A stretch of DNA of 45,829 nt from Candidatus Hadarchaeota archaeon (GCA_964509845.1 CAZDZG010000003.1:1-45829); one strand, 5' to 3'. Positions 1,538 through 18,219 are shown, counted from the first letter of the stretch. The notes: generated by a model from the sequence alone, not told the origin. Numbers and translations: made by a program.

Positions 1538-2101
1538 CCTTTTTACTTTGGAGGAGGGAGATATAGCCTCAGCGGGCAGGAAGGCCCTGAAGTCGCAGTG
1601 GGGATCTCCCCTGGAGTAGCATCTGAGCTCTTCCACCCGGTAGTCCTTTCCGGTGAAGTGCTGGGTGGCCCCCGCTATGAAGCCGGCCAGATAGTAGCAG
1701 GTTTTCCTCCCCATCCTCCCCATTTCCCTGGCGAAATAGCTTCCACCCTTGAACCTCAGGATCTTCCCTCCCTCCTCCTTGAGGAGCTCTATTTCCCCCA
1801 TCCCGCTCTGGGAGAAGAAGACGTCCGTGTACAGGGTCCTCTCCTTCAGGCTCTTCCTCCCCAGGCCGAAGGTGCGGTAGAGCCACTGGGCCGTCCTCTT
1901 GCCGGACTTCAGGCCCGTCTCGTAAAGGAAGGTGTTGCAGGTTTCCAACCAGATGTCCTCCCTGACCATCGGGGGGACGAGCTCGAGGATCCTTCCCGCA
2001 TCCACCAGGCATCCCATCCAGAGCTCGAAGGCCTGCTTCCAGTTGTTGCTCAGATAATCCCGTACCTTCCTTTCCACTTCCTCATAGGATTCCATCATCA
2101 C
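1523..2101 (-). CDS. V4R domain protein (hydrocarbon/ligand-binding-like)
   Basis: 192-aa ORF. The C-terminal CYYLAGFIAGATQHF...VEELRCYSRGDPHCDF matches the V4R cysteine/glycine pattern. The last 15 nt overlap the tRNA-Ser 5' end. Confidence 0.6.
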   Translation of the reverse strand: MMMESYEEVERKVRDYLSNNWKQAFELWMGCLVDAGRILELVPPMVREDIWLETCNTFLYETGLKSGKRTAQWLYRTFGLGRKSLKERTLYTDVFFSQSGMGEIELLKEEGGKILRFKGGSYFAREMGRMGRKTCYYLAGFIAGATQHFTGKDYRVEELRCYSRGDPHCDFRAFLPAEAISPSSKVKRAGVA

Positions 2102-2118
2102 TCTTCCTCGACCCTCAT

Positions 2119-2125
2119 AAAAAAA
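2119..2125 (-). terminator. oligo-T tract after the PolD large-subunit stop
   Basis: Minus strand reads TGA-TTTCAA-TTTTTTT-ATGAGGG. Archaeal terminators are oligo-T runs. The same AT tract lies about 20 nt upstream of the V4R ATG and could double as its TATA box. Confidence 0.35.
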
Positions 2126-2131
2126 TTGAAA

Positions 2132-5100
2132 TCACAGAAAGTCCGCCAAGCTGGTCTGTCTCTCGGCATCGCTCTCGAAGACCGACTTTATGTCGCTCTC
2201 CATCAGCCTCAAGCGCTGCTTGGTGTACTCCCTCACCCCGAACTCCTCCGCCACCCTCAGGGCGGTGCGCAGGTACTTCTCCACCCCTCCCCTCGGAACC
2301 GTCAGGACGAGGTTCCCCCCGCACTCCGGGCACCTGCCGAGGAGGGGGAGGCGCCTGTACTTGGTGTTGCAGCCGGTGCACCTGAACTGCTGGGTGCAGA
2401 ACTTGCGCAGGTTCCCCTTCAGGTCGGGGATGAGGTGGTGCTCGATCACCCGCTCCGCCACGTCCTTCTCGTCCACCGCCCTTATCCGCCTGGCCAGGGT
2501 CAGCTGGGCCATCACCTTCTCCTCCATGCTCTCCAGCGTGGAGTAGGTGGAGGTCAGGGGGCCTAGGGCCACGTCGGAGGTGTGGACGTTGAAGGCCAGT
2601 CCCTCGTACTGTCCCTCCTTCCCCAGTCTTTTCTCCACGATCTCCATGAAGGGAAGGACCTCGGTGGGATGGGCTCCCCTGAGGGTGGCCTCGTAGAACT
2701 CCAGGGGATACCTGAACATCACGTCCATGTTGTGAACCTCCTTGTCCACCTCCCTGGGGTCTATCCTCACGTTAAGGACCAGCGGGGCATCCATGAAGCC
2801 CCCCCTGGTGGCCGGCAGGAACCTCCTGCTGAAGTTGAGGAGGGCATCCAGCAGGAGCATCACGGCATCTTCATCCCCGTCGCAGTCCCTGCGCTTGGCC
2901 GCGTGGAAGTAGGGATGGGCGTAGCCCACGTTGGCCCTCGTGAACCCCACGATCCTCCCCACCATGCCCACGGAGGTGTGGGGGGAGAGGCCCACCACCA
3001 GGTGCCCCAGCAGGTCCTCCTTCCTCCTGGCCCTGTAGTAAGGGGGCAAACCGTAGAACTTCTCCAGGAGTTCGTCCAAGAAGCAGGCAACCCTCAGCAG
3101 GTACTTGGCCGCCTCCTCGCAGAGGATCACGTCCTGAACCTTCAGCTCGACCAGCTGGTCCTCCCTCTCCAGCGGCTCCCCCAGGTAGTCCCTGGTGTAA
3201 CCCAGCTCCCTGAGGCGCTCCACGGAAACCCCCACCTCCCTGGGGGTGAAGTGGGTTAGGGGAAGGTTGGTGGCATCGAAGCGGACCGTTCCGTCCTTGA
3301 AGACCCTCAGGTCGTACTTGGCCCTGAGGATCCCCTTCTCCAGCGGCTCGGGTATCTTGTAGGCGCTGCTCATCCCCTTCACCCCCTTCAGCTCGGGGGG
3401 AGCCTTCTCCCCCAGTCTCCTCTCGGCCTCCTCCAGCATCCCCCTGAGATCAAGCATCCTCTCCTGGAAGAATTCCTCCCTGACCCCGCAGGTCTGGCAC
3501 CTTCCCTTCAGACCAGGCCTGCCGCACTTGGGACAGGCCTTCACGAACTCCATCTTCTCCCCGCAGGTGGGACACCGCCTGGTGAGCCCCACCGTTCCGC
3601 AGGACGGACACCTCAGGTTGGCGAGCTCCACCTTTATCCCCTCCCTGCAGGAGGCCGCCTTCAGGATGCTGCGGGTGGGTCCGCCGGCCTGACCCACCGG
3701 GAAGAGCAGGTGAGGGGGAGGGTCCATTTCCCTGGGCTTGGCCTTCTCCGGCCTCCCCATCTTGCTCCCTATCCAGGTGGGGGCCTTCTTCCTGACCGGG
3801 AAGCCCGCCACCTTCTCCAGCAGAACCATCACGTCCTGCTCCTCCTCCCTCTCCAGCCTCTCCGGTGTCCTCTCCCTGCCCTTCAGGATCCCCAGCGTGC
3901 GGCAGAGGGGAAGGGCATGCTCCTCTATCCTGACCCTTCCGTCCCTCACCCAATGGGGAACGCCCAGGAGCTCCAGGATCCTCTTGGGTGCTTCCTGCAG
4001 GGGAAGGACTAGGGCCCTTAGCTCCTCCCCCTCGAACTCCGCCTCCCCCGAACACAGCCATCTGGCCAGCTCCACCAGCTCCTCCCTCCCCACCTCGTGG
4101 TAGAAGTAGGTGTAGTGGGGATGGAGGGGAACGCCCAGCCTTTCCGAGATCTCCACCGCCAGCCTGGGAGGGGGGGGAGGATAGGGGGGGAGGAGGTAAG
4201 GGGAGAGGTCGACCGGGAACTCCCTGCCCGACCTCTCCACCTCCTGCGCCCACCACTCCTCGCAGTAACCCGCGGGCAGGAGGGGATGGTTGTTCTCCAG
4301 GAACTCCCCGAAGTCCACCAGCAGATCGCCCAGGAACAGGATCTCCTCCACCTCCCCCCTCAGCCTCTCCGCCTCCTCCACGGAGGAGATCCTGACCACG
4401 GAACCATCCCGCAGCTTGACCGTGGGCCCCTCTATGGTGTCCACGGGAGCCACGGCCCCACCCTTCCCCGGCCGCTCAAGCTTGAGCTGCGTTCCCACCG
4501 CCAGGAAGCCCTCCAGGATCACCATGGTGGCGGGGTGCACCCCCACCGCCGCTATTCCGGTGTTCCTCGACCTCCCGTACCTGAGCCTGAAGCCCCCCGG
4601 CTTTCCCGGGTAGGAAATCACCGGGCGTCCCCCTATCACCTCCTCCAGGTACTTGGCCTCCTCCTCCCCCTCCCCCCGCGGGGAGGAATTCTTCACCAGC
4701 TCCTCCAGCCACTCCCAGCCGTCTATTCCCAGCTTGTTCACGTACTTCAGGATCTTGGGGGCCTTCTGCAGCACCCCCTCCGCGAGGGCCAGCACGGCCC
4801 CCCCTCTGACGAAGTTGTGCCCCACGCGGGGCAGGTCCCGGTAAGCCATGACCATCACCTCCCTGCTGGTGGGTTCCCCCGTCAGCTCCACGGGCAGGTT
4901 GCGGATCGCCATCCTCACCTCGTCCGGAGTGGGGGTGTACTGCAGGTGGGCTATCTCCGTGGAGTAAAGGCTCACCTCCTCCACGAACCTCTCCACCTCC
5001 TTCTCGGTGGGCTTGTACCTGTCCAGCAGGAGCTTTCTCCGGATGAAATCCCCCACCAGAACCGCCAGGGCCGCGGCCGTCCCCCCCGCCGACCTTATGG

Positions 5101-5536
5101 GACCTGAGAAGTAAAGGGCCAGGTACCTGCTCCGATCGGGGTTCTCCCTTATCTTCACCTCCGTCAGCCCCTCCAGCGGGGCCGCCACCGCTATCCCCTC
5201 GGTGATGATGGCCAGGGCGGTCCGCAGGGCCTGCTCCGCCCTCTTCTCCTCATCTCCCTCCCCCAGCTTTCCGTCCACGATCATCTCCGCCACCTTAAGG
5301 GCCAGCTCCTCCCTGGGCATTTCCTTCTCCAGCTCCCTTATCACCCGGCTCACCCCCCGGGGACCGACTATCTCCTCCACCCTGGAGGCCATGTCCTCCG
5401 CGATGGGTATCTCGGGCTCCAGCTCCGGATCCTTCCCCAGCAGCCTGGCCTTCCTGGCCACCTCGTAGGCCTCCTCCACCTTGCGCTCTATCTCCGCGAA
5501 ATAGGCCCTCATGCCCTGGCTCGCCACCACGCTCAT
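2132..5536 (-). CDS. polC: DNA polymerase II (PolD) large subunit DP2
   Basis: 1134-aa ORF with a clustered Cys4 zinc-finger region (CPSCG...CPTCG...CPKCG...CQTCG), the catalytic-region CDGDEDA motif, and a C-terminal FRCTGCNTKYRRLPLLGRCPECGG. Length suggests no intein. Confidence 0.95.
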   Translation of the reverse strand: MSVVASQGMRAYFAEIERKVEEAYEVARKARLLGKDPELEPEIPIAEDMASRVEEIVGPRGVSRVIRELEKEMPREELALKVAEMIVDGKLGEGDEEKRAEQALRTALAIITEGIAVAAPLEGLTEVKIRENPDRSRYLALYFSGPIRSAGGTAAALAVLVGDFIRRKLLLDRYKPTEKEVERFVEEVSLYSTEIAHLQYTPTPDEVRMAIRNLPVELTGEPTSREVMVMAYRDLPRVGHNFVRGGAVLALAEGVLQKAPKILKYVNKLGIDGWEWLEELVKNSSPRGEGEEEAKYLEEVIGGRPVISYPGKPGGFRLRYGRSRNTGIAAVGVHPATMVILEGFLAVGTQLKLERPGKGGAVAPVDTIEGPTVKLRDGSVVRISSVEEAERLRGEVEEILFLGDLLVDFGEFLENNHPLLPAGYCEEWWAQEVERSGREFPVDLSPYLLPPYPPPPPRLAVEISERLGVPLHPHYTYFYHEVGREELVELARWLCSGEAEFEGEELRALVLPLQEAPKRILELLGVPHWVRDGRVRIEEHALPLCRTLGILKGRERTPERLEREEEQDVMVLLEKVAGFPVRKKAPTWIGSKMGRPEKAKPREMDPPPHLLFPVGQAGGPTRSILKAASCREGIKVELANLRCPSCGTVGLTRRCPTCGEKMEFVKACPKCGRPGLKGRCQTCGVREEFFQERMLDLRGMLEEAERRLGEKAPPELKGVKGMSSAYKIPEPLEKGILRAKYDLRVFKDGTVRFDATNLPLTHFTPREVGVSVERLRELGYTRDYLGEPLEREDQLVELKVQDVILCEEAAKYLLRVACFLDELLEKFYGLPPYYRARRKEDLLGHLVVGLSPHTSVGMVGRIVGFTRANVGYAHPYFHAAKRRDCDGDEDAVMLLLDALLNFSRRFLPATRGGFMDAPLVLNVRIDPREVDKEVHNMDVMFRYPLEFYEATLRGAHPTEVLPFMEIVEKRLGKEGQYEGLAFNVHTSDVALGPLTSTYSTLESMEEKVMAQLTLARRIRAVDEKDVAERVIEHHLIPDLKGNLRKFCTQQFRCTGCNTKYRRLPLLGRCPECGGNLVLTVPRGGVEKYLRTALRVAEEFGVREYTKQRLRLMESDIKSVFESDAERQTSLADFL

Positions 5537-6306
5537 CCCACCACCAGCTCGGGAAGCCTGTTCAGAACCAGGTCAGGCTTCCTCTCCTCCCCCAGTCCCC
5601 TCAGGGCCTCCCTGGGTGTGGCCCCGCTCAGCACCAGGACGGAGACCAGCCCCAGCCTCTTGGCCGGCACCACATCCAGGTCAAGCCTGTCCCCCACCGC
5701 CGCCGTCTCCCGCGGCTCCGTTCCCAGGAGGCGAAGGGCCATCCGGTACATCCTGGTGGAGGGCTTTCCGATGAGGAGGGGCTTCCTCCCGGAGGAGAAG
5801 GAAATGGCCGAAACCATGGCCCCCGCCCCTGGCTGAAGCCCCTTCTCGGTGGGGTAGGTGGGATCCGCATTGGTCGCCAGGAAGCCCGCCCCTCCCCTCA
5901 GAACCTCGAGGGCCCTCGCCAGCTTTCTGTAGTTGAACCTCCTGTCTATTCCCACTACCAGCCAGTCCGCCCCTTCCTCCACCAGCCTCATCCCCACCCT
6001 CCTCAGCTCCTCCCTGAGCCCCTTTTCCCCCACCACGTATACCCTTCCTCCCGGGCTCCTCCTCCTGAGGTATTCGGCCGCCACGTACCCGGAGGTTATC
6101 ACCTCCTCCACCCTTGCCCGGATGCCCATTCCCTCCAGCTTCCTCACGTAATCCCGCCTGGAGAGGGAGGAATTGTTGGTCACGAAAACCGCCTTTCCTC
6201 CCCTTTCCCTCCACCTCTCCATGAACTCGGGGACCCCCTCCACCGGTGTGTTGCCCACGTAAAGAACACCGTCCAGGTCCAGGATGAGGGCGGAGAGCTT
6301 AAACAA
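5533..6306 (-). CDS. HAD-superfamily hydrolase, subfamily IIA (NagD/PNPase-like phosphatase)
   Basis: 257-aa ORF with TTG start. It has DLDGVLY (motif I), VTNNS (motif II) and a GDRLDLD-type motif IV. It overlaps the flanking PolD subunit genes by 8 nt and 4 nt. Confidence 0.8.
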   Translation of the reverse strand: MFKLSALILDLDGVLYVGNTPVEGVPEFMERWRERGGKAVFVTNNSSLSRRDYVRKLEGMGIRARVEEVITSGYVAAEYLRRRSPGGRVYVVGEKGLREELRRVGMRLVEEGADWLVVGIDRRFNYRKLARALEVLRGGAGFLATNADPTYPTEKGLQPGAGAMVSAISFSSGRKPLLIGKPSTRMYRMALRLLGTEPRETAAVGDRLDLDVVPAKRLGLVSVLVLSGATPREALRGLGEERKPDLVLNRLPELVVG

Positions 6307-7783
6307 AGCTCATCACCCTGGGTTCGTTCCTCTGGAGGTCCAGCACCGTAACCATGCCGGGGGTGGGCACGATGCCCCTTTCCCTCATGTAGCTAGTCAT
6401 GCTCTGGAAGGTTCCGGAGTTGATGGCCCAGACCCCCCGGTACCTCTTGTATCCCGAAACGTGAAGGTGCCCGCAGTGCAGCACGTCGGGAACCTCGTCT
6501 ATCACCAAGAAATCCCTCCTTTCCGGCACCACCGCCACCTTGCCTCCGTAGACGGGGGCCAGGTGCCTGGACCTGAGCAGCCTTATCATCATGGAGGCCA
6601 CATCCCTTCCCGCGCTCCCCGGCAGGGCGGTGGCCAGGTCATCAAAGCTCCTCCCGTGGTAAATGAGGAACTTGATCCCGTGGAGGGAAACCCAGGCGGG
6701 ATTTCCCACCATGACCGCCTTCAGATCGTAAAGCCTTCCCGCCAGCTCCTTGGGGATCGCCGGCTGGGGTTCGGAGGGCCTCACCGCGTCGTGGTTTCCC
6801 GGGGAGAGGATCAGCCTTATGTGGTCGGGTATCCTGCCCAGAAGGTCCGCCACCTCCTCATACTGCTCAAAAACATCGTCTAGGTAGAGCTCCTCCTCCT
6901 GCCCGGGATAGATGCCTATGCCGTCCACCAGGTCCCCCGCCACCACCACGTACTTCACCCTCCCCGCCAGCTCCCTCTGGGAGGAATTGCCCAGCCTTCC
7001 CTCCAGCCAGAGGAGGAACCTGTTGAAAACCTCCCTAAGAAACATCCGGCTCCCCACGTGCAGGTCGGAGAGGAGGACGGCGCAGACGGGCTCCTCCACG
7101 CTGGGGGAGGCGGAGGAGGTGGGAAGGTCGGGCCAGGCTATGTCCCTGGCCACTATCCTGGGCTCCCTGTCCCCGGAGCGGAGCGTGCCCTCCACCCCTA
7201 TTACCTCGTCCAGAAGCACCTCCTCCGCCTTCCGCATCAGCTCCTCGCTCTTGCCCCGATACACCCAGACCGCCGCCGAGCCGGTGGGATCCTCCAGCCT
7301 TATGAGGAGATGGCCCCCCGGCGTTTCCCTCTTCTCCACGACCATCCCCACCACCCTTACCTCCCTCCCCTCCTCCATCCCGGTCAGCTCCGCCAGCGGG
7401 GGAGGGTCGGCGTAATCCGCCCTCTTCATCAGGAGGGCCTTCAGCCTCTCATACCTGTCCAGGAAGAGCTGCAGGAAGTCCCTCACCCCTCCCTTGCCGT
7501 AGCTCTTCCCCGTCACGTCCTTCAGGACCTCCACCCTCTCCTCCACCTCGGCCGCCAGGGGCCTGAAGCGGGACTGGGGAGACTCCACCCATTCCTGTCT
7601 GGGGGGAGATGGCTCCAGTACCTTCCTCACCAGCTCCGCCGTCACGATGAATTCTTTCCCACGCAGGGCCTCCAGGACCCTCTCCGCCTCCTTCTCCCCC
7701 TTCTCCTCCAGAAGGCGGAGGGCCTCGGGGGTTAGGCACATCCTTGCCTCCTGGAACCTCCTGACCAGCGCCGCCCCGTCCAA
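6299..7783 (-). CDS. polB: DNA polymerase II (PolD) small subunit DP1 (3'-5' exonuclease)
   Basis: 494-aa ORF with TTG start. It carries calcineurin-like phosphoesterase motifs LSDLHVGS, AGDLVDGIG, PGNHDA and HCGHLH, preceded by an OB-fold-like region. Confidence 0.93.
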   Translation of the reverse strand: MDGAALVRRFQEARMCLTPEALRLLEEKGEKEAERVLEALRGKEFIVTAELVRKVLEPSPPRQEWVESPQSRFRPLAAEVEERVEVLKDVTGKSYGKGGVRDFLQLFLDRYERLKALLMKRADYADPPPLAELTGMEEGREVRVVGMVVEKRETPGGHLLIRLEDPTGSAAVWVYRGKSEELMRKAEEVLLDEVIGVEGTLRSGDREPRIVARDIAWPDLPTSSASPSVEEPVCAVLLSDLHVGSRMFLREVFNRFLLWLEGRLGNSSQRELAGRVKYVVVAGDLVDGIGIYPGQEEELYLDDVFEQYEEVADLLGRIPDHIRLILSPGNHDAVRPSEPQPAIPKELAGRLYDLKAVMVGNPAWVSLHGIKFLIYHGRSFDDLATALPGSAGRDVASMMIRLLRSRHLAPVYGGKVAVVPERRDFLVIDEVPDVLHCGHLHVSGYKRYRGVWAINSGTFQSMTSYMRERGIVPTPGMVTVLDLQRNEPRVMSFV

Positions 7784-7787
7784 CCTA

Positions 7788-9011
7788 TCACCACGGGAGC
7801 TTGGACTGGCGGGGGAAGGATAGGTTGGGGGAGAAGCCCTCCCCCTCCAGTATTTTCCTCAGCTGGTGAGCGGGAAGGTTGAGGAAGATCTGCTTGGTCC
7901 TGCCATACCTCCCGCTGTTCAGGATCCTGGTGCCCACTATCCCCAGCATCTCCAGCTCCGCCAGCAGGTCGCTCACCCTCCTCGGGGTGAGGACATCCGC
8001 CCCCTGCTGGAGGGCCACCCTCCGGTAAGCCTCATAGGCCTGACCGGTGGTTATCCTCTCCTCCCCCCCCTCCGCCAGCAGGAGGAGGCCCAGGAGGAGG
8101 AACTTGGACTGACTGGGCAGGGTGCCGATGAGCTCGAGGGTCTTGTCCTCCTCCAGCTTTCGGTAGGCCCTGTCCACGTGCTCCGGCGTGACCCCCGTCG
8201 CCCCCTCCTGCTCCGCCAGCTCCCCCGCCACCCTGAGGAGGTCCAGCGCCCTCCTGGCGTCCCCGTGCTCCCTGGCCGCATGGGCGGCGCAGAGGGAGAT
8301 CACCCCCTCCCCCAGCACCCCAGGCTGGAAGGCCTCGGAGGCCCTTTCGGAAAGGATGTCCGCCAGCTGGAGGGCGTCGTAGGGCGGAAACACCAGCTCC
8401 TCCTCCCCCAGGCTGCTCCTGACGCGGGGATCCAGGTACTGGGTGAACCTCAGGTCGTTGGAGATCCCTATCACGCTGACCTTGGCCCTCTCCAGCTCCG
8501 AGTTCACCCTGGTCAGGTCGTAGAGGACCTCGTCCCCCCTCTTCACCACCATCCTGTCCACCTCGTCCAGCACGATGATCACCACCCTGTCCCGCGAGTC
8601 CAGTGCCCTGACGAAGCGATCGTAAAGGACATCCACGGGCCAGCCGGTGGTTGGGATGGGTGACCCGTCCAGCAGGGCGTTGGTCAGGGTGGCCAGGACC
8701 CGGTAGCGGGTATTGACCCTCTCGCAGTTCAGGTAAATCCCCCTTATCTCCCTGTTGAGCTCCCTGCCCGTCCTCTCCAGCTCCCCCAGCACGTATCTTA
8801 CCGTGGCCGTTTTTCCCGTCCCCGTCTTTCCGTAGATGAAAACGTTGGAGGGGGCCTCCCCCCTCAGGGGGAAGGAAAGGATCCTGGCCAGCTGCTCTAT
8901 CTGCTCTTCCCGGTGCGGAAGCCTCTCCGGCAGGTAGCTGGGCCGGAGGAGCTCACGGTTTCTGAAGATCTGCGGGGCTTCCAGCCAACTCCTGAAGAGC
9001 TCTCCCTTCAT
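7788..9011 (-). CDS. cdc6: Orc1/Cdc6 replication initiator
   Basis: 407-aa ORF. N-terminus reads IFRNRELLRPSYLPERLPHREEQI, Walker A is GKTGTGKT, Walker B is VLDEVD, and there is a C-terminal winged-helix-like region. Confidence 0.95.
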   Translation of the reverse strand: MKGELFRSWLEAPQIFRNRELLRPSYLPERLPHREEQIEQLARILSFPLRGEAPSNVFIYGKTGTGKTATVRYVLGELERTGRELNREIRGIYLNCERVNTRYRVLATLTNALLDGSPIPTTGWPVDVLYDRFVRALDSRDRVVIIVLDEVDRMVVKRGDEVLYDLTRVNSELERAKVSVIGISNDLRFTQYLDPRVRSSLGEEELVFPPYDALQLADILSERASEAFQPGVLGEGVISLCAAHAAREHGDARRALDLLRVAGELAEQEGATGVTPEHVDRAYRKLEEDKTLELIGTLPSQSKFLLLGLLLLAEGGEERITTGQAYEAYRRVALQQGADVLTPRRVSDLLAELEMLGIVGTRILNSGRYGRTKQIFLNLPAHQLRKILEGEGFSPNLSFPRQSKLPW

Positions 9012-9471
9012 CTCCCCCCACCTTCAGCCTTTTCATCATCCAGCCCCTCCACTCCTCGACCTTCTCCCCCAGCTCCCTCAGCAGCACCTTTTCCTCAGGG
9101 GTGATCCCCTTGGCCTGCGAGGGGAAGAGGGAGAAGCGCACCAGCTTGCCCAGCCTGAGCTCCAGGAAGTCCTCCACAACCCTCCTCAGCTCCCCCTCCC
9201 TTCCCTCCCTCCTCAGGTGCTCCATCTCCTCCGCCACCAGCAGGTAGAAGTCCGGCGGGAGGGGCTGGAGGCCCGCCTGCCTGGCCTCGGAGAGCTGGAA
9301 CCTCTTCACCGCGGCCGGCCCCATGGGCTGCAGGGGCTCTGCCAGCCCGTGCCTCCTCAGCACCCTTAGCTGCCAGTGCTCCAGCTCCACCTCCTCCCCG
9401 GCCCTGAGGTGGGAGAGGGGCTCACCCAGCCCCAACTCCAGGTCCTGCCTGATGACCGAGCGGATCTTCAT
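8953..9471 (-). CDS. GINS subunit (Gins23-like B-A domain order)
   Basis: 172-aa ORF. A beta-rich N-terminal part (EVELEHWQLRVLRRHGLAE) is followed by a helical part with LPPDFY...R..KL, typical of GINS A domains. It has an ATGA overlap with mcm and a 59-nt overlap with cdc6. Confidence 0.6.
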   Translation of the reverse strand: MKIRSVIRQDLELGLGEPLSHLRAGEEVELEHWQLRVLRRHGLAEPLQPMGPAAVKRFQLSEARQAGLQPLPPDFYLLVAEEMEHLRREGREGELRRVVEDFLELRLGKLVRFSLFPSQAKGITPEEKVLLRELGEKVEEWRGWMMKRLKVGGDEGRALQELAGSPADLQKP

Positions 9472-11462
9472 CCCTTGACCACCCTCGTGACGTAGCCCTG
9501 CTTGGGCTCGTAGAGGAAACCGTCCCTCTTTTCCTCCTCTATCACCCTCAGGGTGAAGTTCTCCTCTATTCCCTCTTCCCTGGCCCTCTTCACTATTTCC
9601 TCCACCGGCGCCATGCCCCCGTGCTTGTTCTCCACCTCCGCAATCAGATCCATTATCCTGAGGATCTTGTCCCGCTGCGACTTGCTCCTGCCCGTCATCA
9701 CCAGGTCTATGTCCAGCTTTCCCGTGGAGGTGTCGAAGCCCGCCTCGCGCAGGTACTTGGAGATGAGCTCGATCGCCCTGCTCACATCCTCCTCCGTCAC
9801 CTCCTGCCTGAAGTGCATCCTGGCGCTCGCCTTGGCCAGCCTTATCATGGCCTCCAGCTGCCTGGGGGTGATGGGAACGGGTGCCTCCCCCCTCTCCGCC
9901 ACGCTCCTGTTCCTGACGTAGAACTCCTCCATCTTCTTAAGGACCTTCTCATCCTTGAGCTTGGGGTGGATGTACTTCTTGGCGTAGATTATCAGCTTCC
10001 TCAGCGTTTCGGAGTCGATGGGGGGTTTGGCCACCTCCGGCTTCCTGTGGAGCTCCAGCATGTGCCTGGCTATCTTCTTGTCCCTCTCGCTCTGCGGCTC
10101 ATCCCGCAGGATGAAGATGAGGTCGAATCTGGAGAGGATCACGGGCTCCAGGCCTATCTGCTGAACCAGGTTGCGGGTCCGATCCAACCTCCCCATCTTG
10201 GGGTTGGAAGCGGCGAGGACGGAGGTGCGGCAGTTCAGGGTGGCCACGATCCCGGCCTTGGCCACCGAGATGGTCTGCTGCTCCAGCGCCTCCAGGATGG
10301 CGCTTCTGTCCTCCTCCGACATCTTGTCGAACTCGTCTATGCAGGCCACCCCCCCATCCGCTATCACCAGGGCTCCGGCCTCAAGCGTCCACCCTCCCCC
10401 CAGCTCGTCCCTGACCGCCGTCGCCGTGAGCCCGGCCCCCGTGGCCTTCTTGCCGGAGGTGTAAAGGCCCCTGGGGGCCACGCTTGCCGTCCAGGTTAGC
10501 AGCATGCTCTTGGCAACCCCGGGATCCCCCGTGAGGAGGATGTGGATGTCCCCCCTGATCCTGGTCCTGTCGGGAAGCTGAAGGGGATCGCAGCCGAAGA
10601 GCATGAGGGCTATCCCCTCCTTCACGGCCTCATATCCGTGAACACTCGGTGCTATGGACCGGATGATCTTGTCGTAGAGCCAGGGATCCTTGATCATCTC
10701 CCTGATCTTCCGCTCATCCTCCTCCGTGAGCTCGGTCTCCTCCACCCCCTTCTGCTGGACCTCCAGGTACGAGATGTCCAGGATCTTCCGGAAGGTCTTC
10801 CTCTTCTGCCTGGGACCTCCCTCCTGGAAGACCTCCAGGATTCCGCTCGCGACCACGTGGTTTCCCGGAACGGCCACGTCCACCAGGTCGTCCCTCACGA
10901 TGCAGTCCAGCATCATGGGCATGCGTCCCCCCCTCAGCTCCTCATGCCTCTCCTGAATCCTCAGGCTCTGCCAGTCCCTGAACTCGGACTTCTCCACCTC
11001 AAGCTTGAAGGGCCCCCTCCTCTTGCAGTTGGGGTTCTGGCAGCTGAGGGGCTCCCTGTAGCTCTCCTCGCTCTGCAGCACCGGGTTGAGCTCGCCGCAG
11101 TGAAGACACTTGAAGAGGGCCTCCCTGAGCTCAGGCTTTATCTCGCTGGCCCTGGTGAGAATGCCCTCCACCTGGATGAACTTCCCCACGTGCTCCGCCC
11201 TGAGGTCCCTGATCTTGACGGTCTCCCCCGCCCCCCTCACCCTGAGCTGCATCTTGGGGCGGCCGGTGATCTCCACCAGCAGCTCGTTGGCTATGCGGAA
11301 GAAGTGGCGGGGGGATTCCAGCAGGGCCTCCGCCAGGGTCTTCTTCCCTTCCCACTCGGAGGTCGCCAGCTCGTCGAAGGTCAGAACTAAAGAGTTCTCC
11401 CCCTTCGCCTCCGCGTTCTTCAGCCTCCTTACCATTTCCTTCTGCGAGAAGAACTCCCTCAA
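9468..11462 (-). CDS. mcm: MCM replicative helicase
   Basis: 664-aa ORF. It has a zinc finger (CLHCG...CQNPNC), Walker A GDPGVAKS, Walker B CIDEFDK and arginine finger SRFDL. The ORF-track start is TTG and the true start is uncertain. Confidence 0.95.
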   Translation of the reverse strand: MREFFSQKEMVRRLKNAEAKGENSLVLTFDELATSEWEGKKTLAEALLESPRHFFRIANELLVEITGRPKMQLRVRGAGETVKIRDLRAEHVGKFIQVEGILTRASEIKPELREALFKCLHCGELNPVLQSEESYREPLSCQNPNCKRRGPFKLEVEKSEFRDWQSLRIQERHEELRGGRMPMMLDCIVRDDLVDVAVPGNHVVASGILEVFQEGGPRQKRKTFRKILDISYLEVQQKGVEETELTEEDERKIREMIKDPWLYDKIIRSIAPSVHGYEAVKEGIALMLFGCDPLQLPDRTRIRGDIHILLTGDPGVAKSMLLTWTASVAPRGLYTSGKKATGAGLTATAVRDELGGGWTLEAGALVIADGGVACIDEFDKMSEEDRSAILEALEQQTISVAKAGIVATLNCRTSVLAASNPKMGRLDRTRNLVQQIGLEPVILSRFDLIFILRDEPQSERDKKIARHMLELHRKPEVAKPPIDSETLRKLIIYAKKYIHPKLKDEKVLKKMEEFYVRNRSVAERGEAPVPITPRQLEAMIRLAKASARMHFRQEVTEEDVSRAIELISKYLREAGFDTSTGKLDIDLVMTGRSKSQRDKILRIMDLIAEVENKHGGMAPVEEIVKRAREEGIEENFTLRVIEEEKRDGFLYEPKQGYVTRVVKG

Positions 11463-15775: not shown

Positions 15776-16174
15776 TCATCTCCTTCTCTTCGGAATTATC
15801 AGGAGCAGGAGGCCCTCCTTCAGCCTCAGGGTGCGCTCCTCGGGGACGGCCTTGGGGGGGAGCTCGAAGGTGGAGAAGTAGGCCTTTCCGTCCCTCCTCC
15901 TCGCCACCACCTCGATGGCCCTCCCCCTCCTCCTCACCTCCACCCTTTCCCTTTCCACTCCCGGAACGTGCATGCAGAAGATGATCTCCCAAGGTCTCTC
16001 CAGGTAAAGGTATTCCGTTTCAAGCGTTCCCTTTATCTCCCGATCCTCCGATTCCCTGATCCTCCGAACCCCCACCTGTGAGCCACCCGATCCCTTCACC
16101 CCTATCGTTTCACCCCCCTTCTCCATCTCCCCGACCAGCTTCCGTATCTTTTTAAAAAACTCCTCCTCAAACAT
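15776..16174 (-). CDS. hsp20: small heat-shock protein, Hsp20/alpha-crystallin family
   Basis: 132-aa ORF. The alpha-crystallin-like core reads HVPGVERERVEVRRRGRAIEVVARR...YFSTFELP...LRLKEGLLLLIIPK. Confidence 0.7.
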   Translation of the reverse strand: MFEEEFFKKIRKLVGEMEKGGETIGVKGSGGSQVGVRRIRESEDREIKGTLETEYLYLERPWEIIFCMHVPGVERERVEVRRRGRAIEVVARRRDGKAYFSTFELPPKAVPEERTLRLKEGLLLLIIPKRRR

Positions 16175-16210: not shown

Positions 16211-16235
16211 CCACCCCTTCGTTTCCACTGGAAAC
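16211..16235 (-). promoter_or_regulatory. ORB-like origin recognition box (ORB-a)
   Basis: The reverse complement reads GTTTCCAGTGGAAACGAAGGGGTGG. This gives a TCCA-N-TGGA dyad, GGAAAC and a G-string. It lies in the hsp20 / LAGLIDADG divergent intergenic region, directly beside the AT-rich tract 16236-16290. Confidence 0.6.
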
Positions 16236-16276
16236 CTCTATCCCTTTTTATGGCTCTTTTTGTGATATATATACAG

Positions 16277-16627
16277 ATGAAGCTTTCGGAGGAGGAAAGG
16301 GGCTGGGTGCTGGGATACTTGGAGGCCAAGGGTTGCTTTTCCCACAACAGGGTGGTCACCAAACGGGGGCTCTACCAGAATCCCGCCTTCTTCGTGACCC
16401 ACAGGGAAAAGGAGCCGCTCCTGCTGCTCAAGGAGAAGACGGGGCTCGGGGAGGTGAGGAGGGCGGGGGGATTGTTTCGGTGGGAGGTGAGGAGGAAGGC
16501 GGAGGTGATGGAGCTCCTGGACCTGCTGGAGGGCGGCCTCAGGCTACCCTCCAAGATCCGTCAGTACGAGAGGTGGAAGAGGGAGGTTCTCCAGTGGAAA
16601 CAGAGGGGGATCCCCAAAGCCTTATAG
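16277..16627 (+). CDS. free-standing single-motif LAGLIDADG-fold protein (catalytic acidic residue replaced by Lys)
   Basis: The ORF track gives 16250-16627. The ATG at 16277 (MKLSEEERGW...) fits a TTTTTA box at about 16244-16249. The motif WVLGYLEAKGCF aligns to LAGLIDADG-[SC]F, and the downstream pattern FFVTH...LLLLKEKTGLGEV...FRWEV...ELLDLL is typical of the fold. Confidence 0.65.
   Translation: MKLSEEERGWVLGYLEAKGCFSHNRVVTKRGLYQNPAFFVTHREKEPLLLLKEKTGLGEVRRAGGLFRWEVRRKAEVMELLDLLEGGLRLPSKIRQYERWKREVLQWKQRGIPKAL
16589..16609 (+). promoter_or_regulatory. ORB-like origin recognition box (ORB-b)
   Basis: CTCCAGTGGAAACAGAGGGGG shares TCCAGTGGAAAC + NN + AGGGG with ORB-a in inverted orientation. 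It lies inside the 3' end of the LAGLIDADG ORF, about 40 nt upstream of the topoisomerase IB start. Confidence 0.6.
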
Positions 16628-16650: not shown

Positions 16651-18219
16651 ATGCCGATTAAGTCGCTCGTTCACAGAGGGGTGCTCGTTCCCTCCTACGA
16701 GTGGAAGGGCCTTCACCTCTTCTATCGTGGCAGGAGGCTGGAGCTGAATCCCGTTCAGGAGGAGATGGCCGTGGCCTTCGGAAGACACCTCCTGGCGGGA
16801 AGGGGGGAGGACAGGGTCTTCGTTAGGAATTTCCTCACGGATTTCTGCAAGGCCCTGGGGATACCCAAGGACACGGAGCTGAAGCATTTCGACTTCTCCC
16901 CCATCCTCAGGTGGATAGAGGAGGAGAAGAGGAAGAAGGAGGGGATGAGCAAGGAGGAGCGCAAGAGGCTGGCTGAAGAAAGGAAGCGCCAGAGGGAGTT
17001 GAACAGGGAGAGGTGGGGGGTGGCCTGGATCGACGGGGAGAGGGTTGAGGTAAAGAACTACACCGTCGAGCCCCCCTGCGTCTTCGTGGGCAGGGGCAGG
17101 CATCCCCTCAGGGGAAGGTGGAAGCCCAGGGTGGAGTACGAGGACATCATCCTCAACCTCTCGCCCGACGCCCCCACCCCCGAGCTGCCCGAGGGCAGGA
17201 GGTGGGGAGGGAGGGAGTGGGATCCGGAGGCCCTCTGGATAGCCAAGTGGAGGGATAAGCTCACGGGGAAGATGAAGTACGTCTGGCTCTCCGATACCTC
17301 CCCCCTCAAGCAGGAGAGGGAGAGGGAGAAGTTCGATCGTGCCAAGGCCCTAGGGGAGGAAATAGAGAGGGTCAGGGAGCACATAAGGAAGCACCTGTCC
17401 GATCCCGATCTCAAGCGGAGGATGGTGGCCACGGTGTGCTATCTGATAGACGAGCTGAAGCTGAGGGTGGGGGATGAGAGGGACAGGGAGGAGAGGAACA
17501 CGGTGGGGGCCACGACCCTGGGGCCGGAACACCTCAGGTTCAACGGAGGGGAGGTGAGGTTCAGCTTCTTGGGCAAGGATCACGTCCGCTGGTCCAAGAC
17601 CCTCAGGCCCATCCCGGAGGTCCTCAGGAACCTGAGGGAGTTCGCGAGGAGGGGTGGGGAAAGGCTCTTTCCCGGGGTCAGCTCCGAGGACGTGAACGCC
17701 TTCCTGGGGGAGGTGGTCCCTGGGCTGACGGCCAAGGTCTTCCGCACCTACCATGCCTCGAGGATAGTGGAGGAGGAACTGAGGAAGGCAGGAATAGGGA
17801 AGGAGAACACCGAGATGGAGAAGAGGTGCGCGGCGAAGAGGGCCAACCTGAGGGCAGCGGAGGAGCTGAATCACAAGCGAAAGGTACCCGCGGGCTGGAA
17901 AAGGAAGGTGGAGAGGCTCAGGGAGAGGATAAGGAAGCTTGAGGAGAGGCTGAGGGAGCTGAGGGCCAAGCGGGGCAGGAGGAAGGAGGAGAGGCTGAGG
18001 AAGCTGAGGGAGAGAATAAGGGAGCTGAAGCTCAGGCTGGAGCTGGAGAGGGAGATAAGGGACTTCAACCTGGGCACCTCCCTCAACTCCTACATAGATC
18101 CCAGGATCTACGTCAGGTGGGCCAGGGAGGTGGGGCTGGGGGTGGAAAAGATATATCCCAAGTCCCTCCAGAGGAAGTTCTCCTGGGCCCTGTCCGAGGA
18201 GCCGGAGCCGACTTTTTAG
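16651..18219 (+). CDS. eukaryote-type DNA topoisomerase IB
   Basis: The ORF track starts at TTG 16642; there is an ATG at 16651. The N-terminal region GVLVPSYEWKGLHLFYRGRRLELNPVQEEMAVAF resembles human Top1 core subdomain I. TAKVFRTYHAS covers the Arg590 region and LNHKR the His632 region. A long R/E/L coiled-coil linker follows, then LGTSLNSYIDPRIYV with the active-site Tyr context. Confidence 0.9.
   Translation: MPIKSLVHRGVLVPSYEWKGLHLFYRGRRLELNPVQEEMAVAFGRHLLAGRGEDRVFVRNFLTDFCKALGIPKDTELKHFDFSPILRWIEEEKRKKEGMSKEERKRLAEERKRQRELNRERWGVAWIDGERVEVKNYTVEPPCVFVGRGRHPLRGRWKPRVEYEDIILNLSPDAPTPELPEGRRWGGREWDPEALWIAKWRDKLTGKMKYVWLSDTSPLKQEREREKFDRAKALGEEIERVREHIRKHLSDPDLKRRMVATVCYLIDELKLRVGDERDREERNTVGATTLGPEHLRFNGGEVRFSFLGKDHVRWSKTLRPIPEVLRNLREFARRGGERLFPGVSSEDVNAFLGEVVPGLTAKVFRTYHASRIVEEELRKAGIGKENTEMEKRCAAKRANLRAAEELNHKRKVPAGWKRKVERLRERIRKLEERLRELRAKRGRRKEERLRKLRERIRELKLRLELEREIRDFNLGTSLNSYIDPRIYVRWAREVGLGVEKIYPKSLQRKFSWALSEEPEPTF

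Follow-up and report, generated by a model that had tools for sequence, protein, structure and literature searches.

A putatively domesticated LAGLIDADG-fold protein encoded between two inverted initiator-binding boxes in a predicted replication origin of Hadarchaeota

Introduction

Homing endonucleases are expected to invade a site, decay and vanish, and the cases in which a host has retained them are few: maturases, WhiA and HO. A 45,829-nucleotide stretch of DNA from a Candidatus Hadarchaeota archaeon (GCA_964509845.1, CAZDZG010000003.1:1-45829; hereafter the window) raises the question of why a small, complete gene of the LAGLIDADG type lies between two inverted origin recognition boxes (ORBs), the sites bound by the initiator Orc1/Cdc6, with one of the two boxes overlapping its coding sequence. 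A previous sequence-only reading of the window had offered two answers, a domesticated, probably nuclease-dead protein or the relic of a homing element that had invaded the origin. The answer that we favour, at somewhat better than even confidence, is that this open reading frame (ORF) encodes a domesticated, catalysis-independent and presumably homodimeric LAGLIDADG DNA-binding protein that is resident in the predicted replication origin (oriC) of Hadarchaeota.

The LAGLIDADG superfamily is well known, as is the loss of catalysis with retention of the protein. The features that appear to be new are the residence of such a gene in the predicted oriC across the sampled lineage, the overlap of an ORB with its coding sequence, a catalytic residue that has been lost repeatedly from a protein under purifying selection, and the inversion of an ORB-bounded module. 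Full-text literature searches returned no paper combining LAGLIDADG with ORB, oriC or Orc1, and nothing on Hadesarchaeal origins of this kind, in agreement with the earlier remark that no origin-embedded LAGLIDADG protein was known to have been described. The central features of the locus are as follows.

16277..16627, plus strand: single-motif LAGLIDADG-fold gene, 116 aa (ATG 16277 to TAG 16627), from Pfam, phmmer, AlphaFold2 (AF2), Foldseek and the family profile.
16307..16339, plus strand: LAGLIDADG-like motif VLGYLEAKGCF, residues 11-21, in the register of the I-Vdi141I, I-AabMI and I-TnaI alignments.
16211..16235, minus strand: ORB-a, GTTTCCAGTGGAAACGAAGGGGTGG on the minus strand (GTTTCCAGTGGAAACGAAGGGGT), a dyad core with a G-string directed away from the gene; exact core match.
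16236..16276, no strand: AT-rich spacer, 41 nt, 32% GC (window 65%), from sequence composition.
16587..16609, plus strand: ORB-b, TTCTCCAGTGGAAACAGAGGGGG, in frame with codons V104-G111 (VLQWKQRG); exact core match.

The ORF encodes a LAGLIDADG-fold protein

The ORF is free-standing, with its own start, promoter-like element and stop, and is flanked by complete Hsp20-like and topoisomerase IB (TopoIB) genes. An Rfam scan at the locus identified no intron and no structured RNA, and no homologue is found in an intron or intein, which bears out the earlier placement of the gene outside such elements. The sequence-only reading had described an ORF of 116-125 aa with normal codon usage. The ORF is real by these measures, with normal codon usage and a GC content at third codon positions (GC3) of 0.86, similar to that of the adjacent genes. 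We have taken the ATG at 16277 as the start (116 aa), since homologues begin near this position and the alternative ATG at 16250 (125 aa) lies inside the conserved TATA-like TTTTTATGG.

The sole Pfam match of the ORF is LAGLIDADG_1 (PF00961), which covers residues 12-102 with E=2.7e-4 and 22.2 bits, against a cutoff of 23.1 bits. A phmmer search of the PDB sequences with the window protein identified I-Vdi141I (E=3.4e-5), in which GYILGFIEAEGSF is aligned with GWVLGYLEAKGCF. Taken by itself, the sequence similarity of the window protein to LAGLIDADG proteins seems real, if weak. A profile constructed from 40 family members matched I-AabMI (3.8e-15), I-Vdi141I (8.7e-13) and I-TnaI (3.9e-10) in the PDB, with an identical register of the motif, and leaves no ambiguity as to the assignment of the family.

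The AF2 model of the window protein, for which 11 sequences served as input, has a mean predicted local distance difference test score (pLDDT) of 87.7. Its helices (H) and strands (E) follow the order H-E-E-H-E-E-H with an additional C-terminal helix (H5-18, E20-28, E31-42, H45-55, E59-63, E66-71 and H74-84). The best matches of the model in a Foldseek search of the PDB are I-Vdi141I (template modelling score, TM, 0.78), I-CeuI, I-TnaI and I-CreI, with TM values of 0.74-0.80, and the top 50 PDB matches are LAGLIDADG enzymes throughout. The predicted structure confirms that the ORF encodes a protein of the LAGLIDADG alpha-beta fold, as the sequence-only reading had anticipated from a single motif.

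A defence or phage origin of the gene was also considered. The window protein has no PADLOC match and no PHROG match, and the family was not found in the viral contigs searched, so this possibility was rejected. PADLOC/PHROG-type scans of an Asp-type relative (see below) match generic homing-endonuclease models alone.

A family of Hadarchaeota proteins with a variable catalytic position

An initial search identified 10 homologues of 102-113 aa with 61-99% identity, one of them annotated as Candidatus Hadarchaeales; the EAKG of the motif and the C-terminal VLQWKQRG are invariant among these 10. An exhaustive profile search added a few small relatives, followed by generic LAGLIDADG proteins, and a second search seeded by the small relatives expanded the family to about 40 clusters. 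All named members of these clusters are Hadesarchaea, Hadarchaeales or Hadarchaeum. The family proteins are 108-146 aa in length, consist of one domain, and are labelled in the databases as 'hypothetical' or 'LAGLIDADG family homing endonuclease'. For the survey of the surrounding layout, 39 loci from genomes and metagenomes (given L numbers below) were combined with Candidatus Hadarchaeum yellowstonense, for a total of 40.

The catalytic position can be identified by comparison with I-Vdi141I, an active homodimer with the motif ILGFIEAEG (residues 12-21; PMC2602781). Alignment with this motif places Lys18 of the window protein (AAG, 16328-16330) at the position of the metal-binding acid, and the alignments to I-AabMI and I-TnaI likewise place it in the catalytic Glu/Asp column. 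Thus, the assignment of a lysine to the catalytic acidic position, as proposed in the sequence-only reading, holds against three enzymes of the PDB, and E16, A17, K18 and G19 are all invariant across the window's clade. Since the metal ligand is lost, and since the D20N variant of I-CreI has been used as an uncleaving complex (1t9i), cleavage by the Lys type is predicted to be absent.

The loss does not, however, extend to the entire family. The catalytic column is occupied by lysine in the window's clade, in the clade of L015 and L046, in the Ca. H. yellowstonense group and also in L007, by arginine in L011, and by alanine in L016 and L042; the remaining family members have Glu, Asp, Gly or Ser. 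On a neighbour-joining tree, the acidic residue must have been replaced independently seven times or more, and it was probably ancestral for one main branch of this tree. The earlier description of a lost acidic residue is, therefore, correct for the window's clade and too broad for the family, part of which keeps Glu/Asp; the loss would be both derived and repeated. The scores of LAGLIDADG_1 decrease along with these substitutions, and are 53 bits for the Asp type (L019) and 25.8 bits for Ca. H. yellowstonense (Lys)/L050, both above the cutoff, 22.2 bits for the window protein (Lys) and 20.4 bits for the Arg type; the Ala type has no match to this Pfam family.

The variability is most evident in a subclade of 23 sequences with a median identity of 83%, in which the catalytic column is the 7th most variable of 128 (E7, D7, G5, S3), and 52 columns are invariant. 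A variable catalytic column amid invariant ones is the reverse of the pattern in an enzyme selected for cleavage.

Purifying selection and vertical inheritance

Nei-Gojobori estimates of the ratio of nonsynonymous to synonymous change (dN/dS) have medians of 0.11 for the all-Lys clade (range 0.07-0.25) and 0.12 for the clade of 129-aa proteins. The proportion of synonymous differences (pS) is about 0.7-0.77, which is near saturation, and the proportion of nonsynonymous differences (pN) is about 0.18. Outside ORB-b, the window's clade has 27 columns in which the amino acid never changes, and every one of these is encoded by at least two different codons. Protein identities in the all-Lys clade are 53-77%, and the lysine is invariant throughout. 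Neither frameshifts nor internal stops were detected among the homologues of the approximately 40 clusters. As dN/dS is about 0.1 and no homologue is disrupted, the protein is under purifying selection rather than a decaying relic, and 'domesticated' is the better fitting of the two descriptions originally offered.

Identity to the window protein drops off through the relatives in an order shared with the housekeeping genes nearby. The gene is, therefore, vertically inherited and codes for a functional protein. The distribution also differs from that of a patchy, horizontally spread element with degenerate copies, since the gene occupies one chromosomal site in 40 loci and is disrupted in none of them.

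The ORB pair and its conserved layout

The core TCCAGTGGAAAC has two exact copies in the window (minus strand, 16221-16232; plus strand, 16590-16601) and none in 100 shuffles. Both boxes, each consisting of the dyad TTCCAGTGGAAA and a G-string, fit the archaeal ORB consensus CTTCCAGTGGAAACGAAAGGGGT (PMC4153887, Table 2, after Pelve et al.). Including the G-strings, ORB-a and ORB-b are the arms of a 19-nt inverted repeat and are separated by 357 nt. ORB-a ends 45 nt short of the ATG of the LAGLIDADG gene, and ORB-b lies within the last 13 codons, in keeping with its earlier placement inside the 3' end of the ORF. When up to two mismatches were allowed, 6 ORB matches were found in the window compared to 4 expected, which is not above chance; the exact matches alone are significant.

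Archaeal origins contain an AT-rich unwinding element with ORBs on either side (PMC5333045). In the window, the AT-rich stretch adjoins ORB-a, and the 357 nt that separate the ORBs are for the most part GC-rich and coding. The TATA-like TTTTTATGG is located in this stretch at 16245-16253, about 27 nt 5' of the LAGLIDADG ATG, and a TATA-like TTATG(A/G) block is kept about 20-30 nt upstream of the ATG in homologous loci, where the spacer measures 24-73 nt with 8-38% GC. We regard the spacer as a putative unwinding element that may also serve as the promoter of the LAGLIDADG gene.

The order of ORB-a, AT-rich spacer, gene, and ORB-b in or at the 3' end of the gene is common to all 40 loci, so that the position between the ORBs noted in the window is kept in every related locus examined. 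In 39 of 39 loci, an opposite-strand ORB with a G-string precedes the ATG by 25-74 nt, and a plus-strand ORB-b falls in the final 13-76 nt of the ORF in 36 of 39. ORB-b is slightly further inside the ORF in L042 and L047, and a perfect ORB directly follows the stop in L043. In L016, the stop is inside ORB-b (TTC CAG TGG AAA TGA AGGGG), and the gene for tyrosyl-tRNA synthetase (TyrRS) begins within the same ORB. The two ORBs are separated by 343-358 nt in the window's clade and by 377-401 nt elsewhere, except for 463 nt in L043; L042 and L047 are without a value. The possibility that ORB-bearing relatives lack the ORF was also considered, and each locus in which the ORB pair was detected also has the ORF. 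No gene-less origin was encountered, although no proper search for one was made; the sole divergent locus, L052, has broken synteny and no ORB, and is uninformative.

The overlap of ORB-b with coding sequence raises the question of which of the two is conserved. The string CTC CAG TGG AAA CAG AGG GG is near-invariant in the window's clade, including its synonymous sites, and 78% of codons are identical pairwise in ORB-b compared to 54% elsewhere, although the pairs are not independent. A column-level test of synonymous conservation in ORB-b was underpowered and not significant (Fisher p=0.16 for the window's clade, p=1 for the 129-aa clade). Constraint at the level of the DNA is suggested mainly by L016 and L043, together with the identity of ORB-b with ORB-a. 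On these sequence comparisons, ORB-b is a DNA element accommodated by the reading frame, and the invariant C-terminus of the protein is largely a translation of ORB-b.

A third mini-ORB-like core without a G-string was observed mid-gene in L015 at 6162-6173 (ATCCAGTGGAAACC, encoding Y-P-V-E-T), as well as in L046 and L029-31 at about +141 to +170.

Genomic setting and flanking genes

The genes that define the setting of the ORB pair in the window are as follows.

7788-9011, minus strand: Orc1/Cdc6, from Pfam.
8953-9471, minus strand: GINS (Sld5 domain), from Pfam.
9468-11462, minus strand: MCM, from Pfam.
15776..16174, minus strand: Hsp20-like gene, divergent, on the ORB-a side; weak Pfam HSP20 match (E=0.016), position kept in the Lys clade.
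16651..18219, plus strand: eukaryote-type TopoIB; Pfam Topoisom_I_N 8.6e-54, Topoisom_I 2.1e-60 and Topo_C_assoc 9.5e-20.

The Orc1/Cdc6-GINS-MCM block (7788..11462) is 4.7-8.4 kb from the ORB pair and is transcribed away from it. It belongs to a tightly packed replication-gene island on the minus strand (2132-11462) consisting of PolD DP2, a HAD hydrolase, PolD DP1, Orc1/Cdc6, GINS and MCM; no intergenic region or ORB is found beside cdc6 in the window. All genes to the left of the module are on the minus strand, and these also include the Hsp20-like gene, an ACT-domain protein, homoserine dehydrogenase, threonine synthase and SHMT. The next four genes to the right of ORB-a, namely those for the LAGLIDADG protein, TopoIB, TyrRS and ParA/MinD, are on the plus strand. 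Thus, the ORB pair coincides with a switch in transcription direction beside the replication-gene island. Based on the two exact inverted ORBs, the conserved layout, and this gene context (the orientation switch and the island of MCM, GINS, Orc1/Cdc6 and PolD), we infer that the ORB pair is an active replication origin. GC skew was rejected as a marker of the origin; it flips at about 16 kb, yet tracks gene strand window-wide and so provides no independent evidence.

The flanks are also shared among the 40 loci, with a 274-aa gene or an Hsp20-like gene on one side, and TyrRS, or TopoIB followed by TyrRS, on the other. Only the window's subclade has TopoIB in the interval from ORB-b to TyrRS. 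In the window, the gap between the end of the LAGLIDADG stop (16627) and the TopoIB ATG (16651) is 23 nt; the two genes are adjacent, as noted earlier, and the previous figure of 24 nt is trivially different. The closest outgroup, L007, has a lysine at the catalytic column and TyrRS 40 nt downstream, with no TopoIB in between. The presence of TopoIB beside the origin looks like a secondary insertion. In L011, the locus with the Arg-type protein, a 496-aa STAND-type NTPase with tetratricopeptide (TPR) repeats (1544-3034) lies directly 3' of ORB-b and ahead of TyrRS; an assignment of this ATPase as Cdc6 was rejected, since it is a STAND/TPR NTPase. The ORB-b side, therefore, appears to tolerate gene insertions, of which TopoIB (window's subclade) and the STAND NTPase (L011) are examples. 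No paper linking Hadesarchaea or Hadarchaeota with TopoIB was found in the literature.

Short GC-rich palindromes (e.g., CTTCCTCGGGAGGAAG and CTTTTCGGAAAAG) were observed between the LAGLIDADG stop and the TopoIB start in L001 (6328-6360) and L002 (425-460), with equivalents in L003 and L008; the window has no such palindrome in this interval. These may form an RNA hairpin near the ribosome-binding site of TopoIB.

On the ORB-a side, the uninverted loci have a Hadarchaeota-specific 274-aa hypothetical gene, which is replaced by the Hsp20-like gene in the window's clade. Representatives from the surveyed loci are as follows.

L015 4904-5728, minus strand; L019 10504-11328, plus strand; L050 5001-5912, plus strand: module-flanking hypothetical gene, 270-300 aa, present in most clades.

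The 274-aa-type protein comprises 98 clusters, in which all named matches are from Hadarchaeota. It has no significant Pfam match and a weak hint of LigD Prim-Pol (E=0.009); one JGI record labels a fragment of this protein type as 'DNA primase'.

The module is inverted relative to its flanks in one subclade (L019, L020, L028, L032-35 and L037-41), compared to the uninverted arrangement of, for example, L015, L016 and L050. In the inverted subclade, ORB-a faces TyrRS and ORB-b faces the 274-aa gene. The latter gene is preceded by a conserved leader element, TTACTTTCGGTGACCTCTCTCCCC, which accompanies it in the inverted subclade as well, and the flanking genes are directed away from the module in either orientation. 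One inversion event through recombination of the two inverted ORBs, with its breakpoints at or inside them, would explain this arrangement, as would a re-insertion of the module.

A separate LAGLIDADG protein was observed on the contig of P0013, a Glu-type relative: in L014 (1648-4052), a 374-aa LAGLIDADG_3 protein with hints of a helix-turn-helix (HTH) motif adjoins a Toprim (DnaG-like) gene.

Proposed role and alternative explanations

A free-standing homing endonuclease gene probably colonised the gap between two inverted Orc1/Cdc6-binding boxes in an early Hadarchaeote. Many replacements of its metal-binding Glu/Asp would have followed, yielding Lys in the window's clade and Arg, Ala, Gly or Ser in other lineages, with the rest of the protein under purifying selection throughout. 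Repeated replacement of the acidic residue in a protein that stays under such selection suggests that it has been kept for a role other than cutting. Most likely, the protein would bind specific DNA sequences with the beta-sheet saddle of the LAGLIDADG fold, acting in cis on the origin, on DNA close to it or on its own promoter, as the saddle is the DNA-binding surface of this fold and the gene never leaves the origin. Possible effects would be to modulate Orc1/Cdc6 loading or unwinding, or to control transcription starting inside the origin.

The gene could instead be a still-selfish, free-standing homing endonuclease with the Hadarchaeote origin as its homing site, in which the Glu/Asp forms are active and spreading and the Lys, Arg, Ala, Gly and Ser forms are recent, undecayed dead copies of no benefit to the host. 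The Glu/Asp members do score as canonical LAGLIDADG_1 proteins (53 bits) and match the homing-endonuclease models of PADLOC, active-type and inactive-type residues are mixed among near-identical sequences as in a homing cycle, homing elements typically target conserved essential sites, of which an origin is an example (PMC2602781), and the module has been inverted once. However, the all-Lys clade, with an invariant lysine at 53-77% identity, synonymous change near saturation and a dN/dS of about 0.11, has persisted for too long to consist of undecayed dead copies. There is no pseudogenised copy among about 40 clusters, the order of divergence follows that of the housekeeping neighbours, as in vertical descent, and the gene is absent from viral contigs; no empty site was found either, though no proper search for one was made. 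On balance, we consider a selfish element unlikely. A quite improbable alternative is that the ORF is kept mainly as DNA, as a fixed-length spacer, as a promoter, or for transcription across the origin that couples the ORBs, and encodes a protein of little function. Such a role would account for the tight inter-ORB distance (343-358 nt in one clade, and 377-401 nt in almost every locus outside it), for the constraint on ORB-b as DNA, which includes synonymous sites and persists with a stop inside the box (L016) or before it (L043), and for the promoter-like element within the AT-rich spacer. It is difficult to reconcile with the free variation of synonymous sites outside ORB-b alongside conserved amino acids (pS about 0.7 compared to pN of about 0.18), which places the constraint on the protein, or with a predicted fold that is both confident and complete.

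The sequence-only reading had also raised an association with the adjacent topoisomerase, and the protein might be a partner or regulator of TopoIB, co-transcribed with it and acting, for example, in the relief of torsion at the origin. In the window's subclade, the two genes share a strand with 23-56 nt between them, and a Shine-Dalgarno-like GGGGGTGA is found upstream of the TopoIB ATG. However, TopoIB is missing from this site in most of the clades that have the gene: TyrRS is directly downstream in L007, L015, L016, L029-31, L042-47 and L050, the 274-aa gene in L019 and L020, and the STAND NTPase in L011. As TopoIB is restricted at this site to the window's subclade, the topoisomerase link is lineage-specific and its association with the gene is secondary, and we consider a TopoIB-centred function highly improbable.

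Several observations weigh against the domesticated DNA-binding protein that we favour. The LAGLIDADG protein evolves faster than its housekeeping neighbours, with 60-75% compared to 80-88% identity for the same genome pairs. Some clades keep Glu/Asp, and these members may still be active selfish endonucleases. The residues of the dimer interface are altered in one clade (AFLEFKG), which may affect helix packing. The ORB pair is named an origin only from sequence, conservation and gene context, and Orc1/Cdc6 is not adjacent to it, but 7.2 kb away. DNA binding, its target, dimerisation and any effect on Orc1/Cdc6 are all inferred.

A more specific and decidedly tentative extension, which we hold at well below even confidence, is that Hadarchaeota use the protein as a dedicated accessory factor that binds the origin, having recruited it from a homing endonuclease that was once a parasite of the origin. 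The protein would act as a catalytically silent dimer that binds and bends the DNA between the ORBs and thereby controls Orc1/Cdc6-dependent melting or MCM loading. If this were true, archaea would have a further kind of origin protein, the third after Orc1/Cdc6 and WhiP, and this phylum would rely, for the initiation of replication, on a domesticated selfish element whose gene lies in oriC itself.

As a domesticated resident of the locus, the protein would mean that an archaeal lineage retains a homing-endonuclease derivative inside its predicted origin, with one initiator-binding box doubling as coding sequence. The family would provide a natural series for the transition from nuclease to binding protein, and the locus provides a predicted oriC for a phylum without cultured members, together with a candidate origin factor specific to the lineage. 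The case also shows that a reading frame can harbour an ORB over time, which is relevant to origin predictors that scan intergenic DNA only.

Comparison with known systems

The closest relatives in sequence and structure are the homodimeric single-motif LAGLIDADG endonucleases (I-Vdi141I, I-CreI, I-CeuI and I-TnaI), which resemble the window protein in fold, size class and the presence of one LAGLIDADG helix, and whose catalytic Glu/Asp is likewise kept by some members of the Hadarchaeote family. In contrast to these enzymes, the window protein is not encoded in an intron or intein, has a lysine in place of the metal-binding residue and is inherited vertically at one site, where its gene lies between ORBs, one of which overlaps the coding sequence.

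Other homing endonucleases have acquired host roles with the loss of cleavage, including maturases, WhiA and the autorepressor I-TevI (PMC3384342). WhiA retains the LAGLIDADG fold without the acidic catalytic residues, which are replaced by Arg and Gly in WhiA of T. maritima (PMC3384342). The WhiA/DUF199 proteins and intron maturases (of the bI3 and I-AniI type) are thus similar to the Hadarchaeote protein in that the LAGLIDADG fold is retained under selection with a host function in place of the endonuclease. The window protein differs from WhiA in being a single domain of 116 aa with no HTH, as judged by Pfam and AF2. Maturases are intron-encoded and bind RNA, whereas the Hadarchaeote protein is archaeal, has neither an intron nor an extra domain, and is found in an origin context.

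The ORB pair itself resembles the oriC of other archaea (Pyrococcus, Sulfolobus and Methanomassiliicoccales) in its near-exact match to the ORB consensus, its inverted arrangement, the AT-rich stretch beside one ORB and its location near replication genes. In contrast, the Hadarchaeote ORBs are 345-400 bp apart, a coding gene fills most of the gap, one ORB is within coding sequence, and orc1/cdc6 is not adjacent. Thermococcales also differ from the window, which has no intergenic region or ORB beside cdc6. Bipartite bacterial origins, such as oriC of H. pylori, are similar in that a protein-coding gene lies between two sets of initiator boxes of one origin, and dnaA of B. subtilis is likewise located between clusters of initiator boxes. 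In bipartite bacterial origins, however, the enclosed gene is that of the initiator, dnaA, whereas the gene enclosed by the Hadarchaeote ORBs is a homing-endonuclease derivative unrelated to the initiator.

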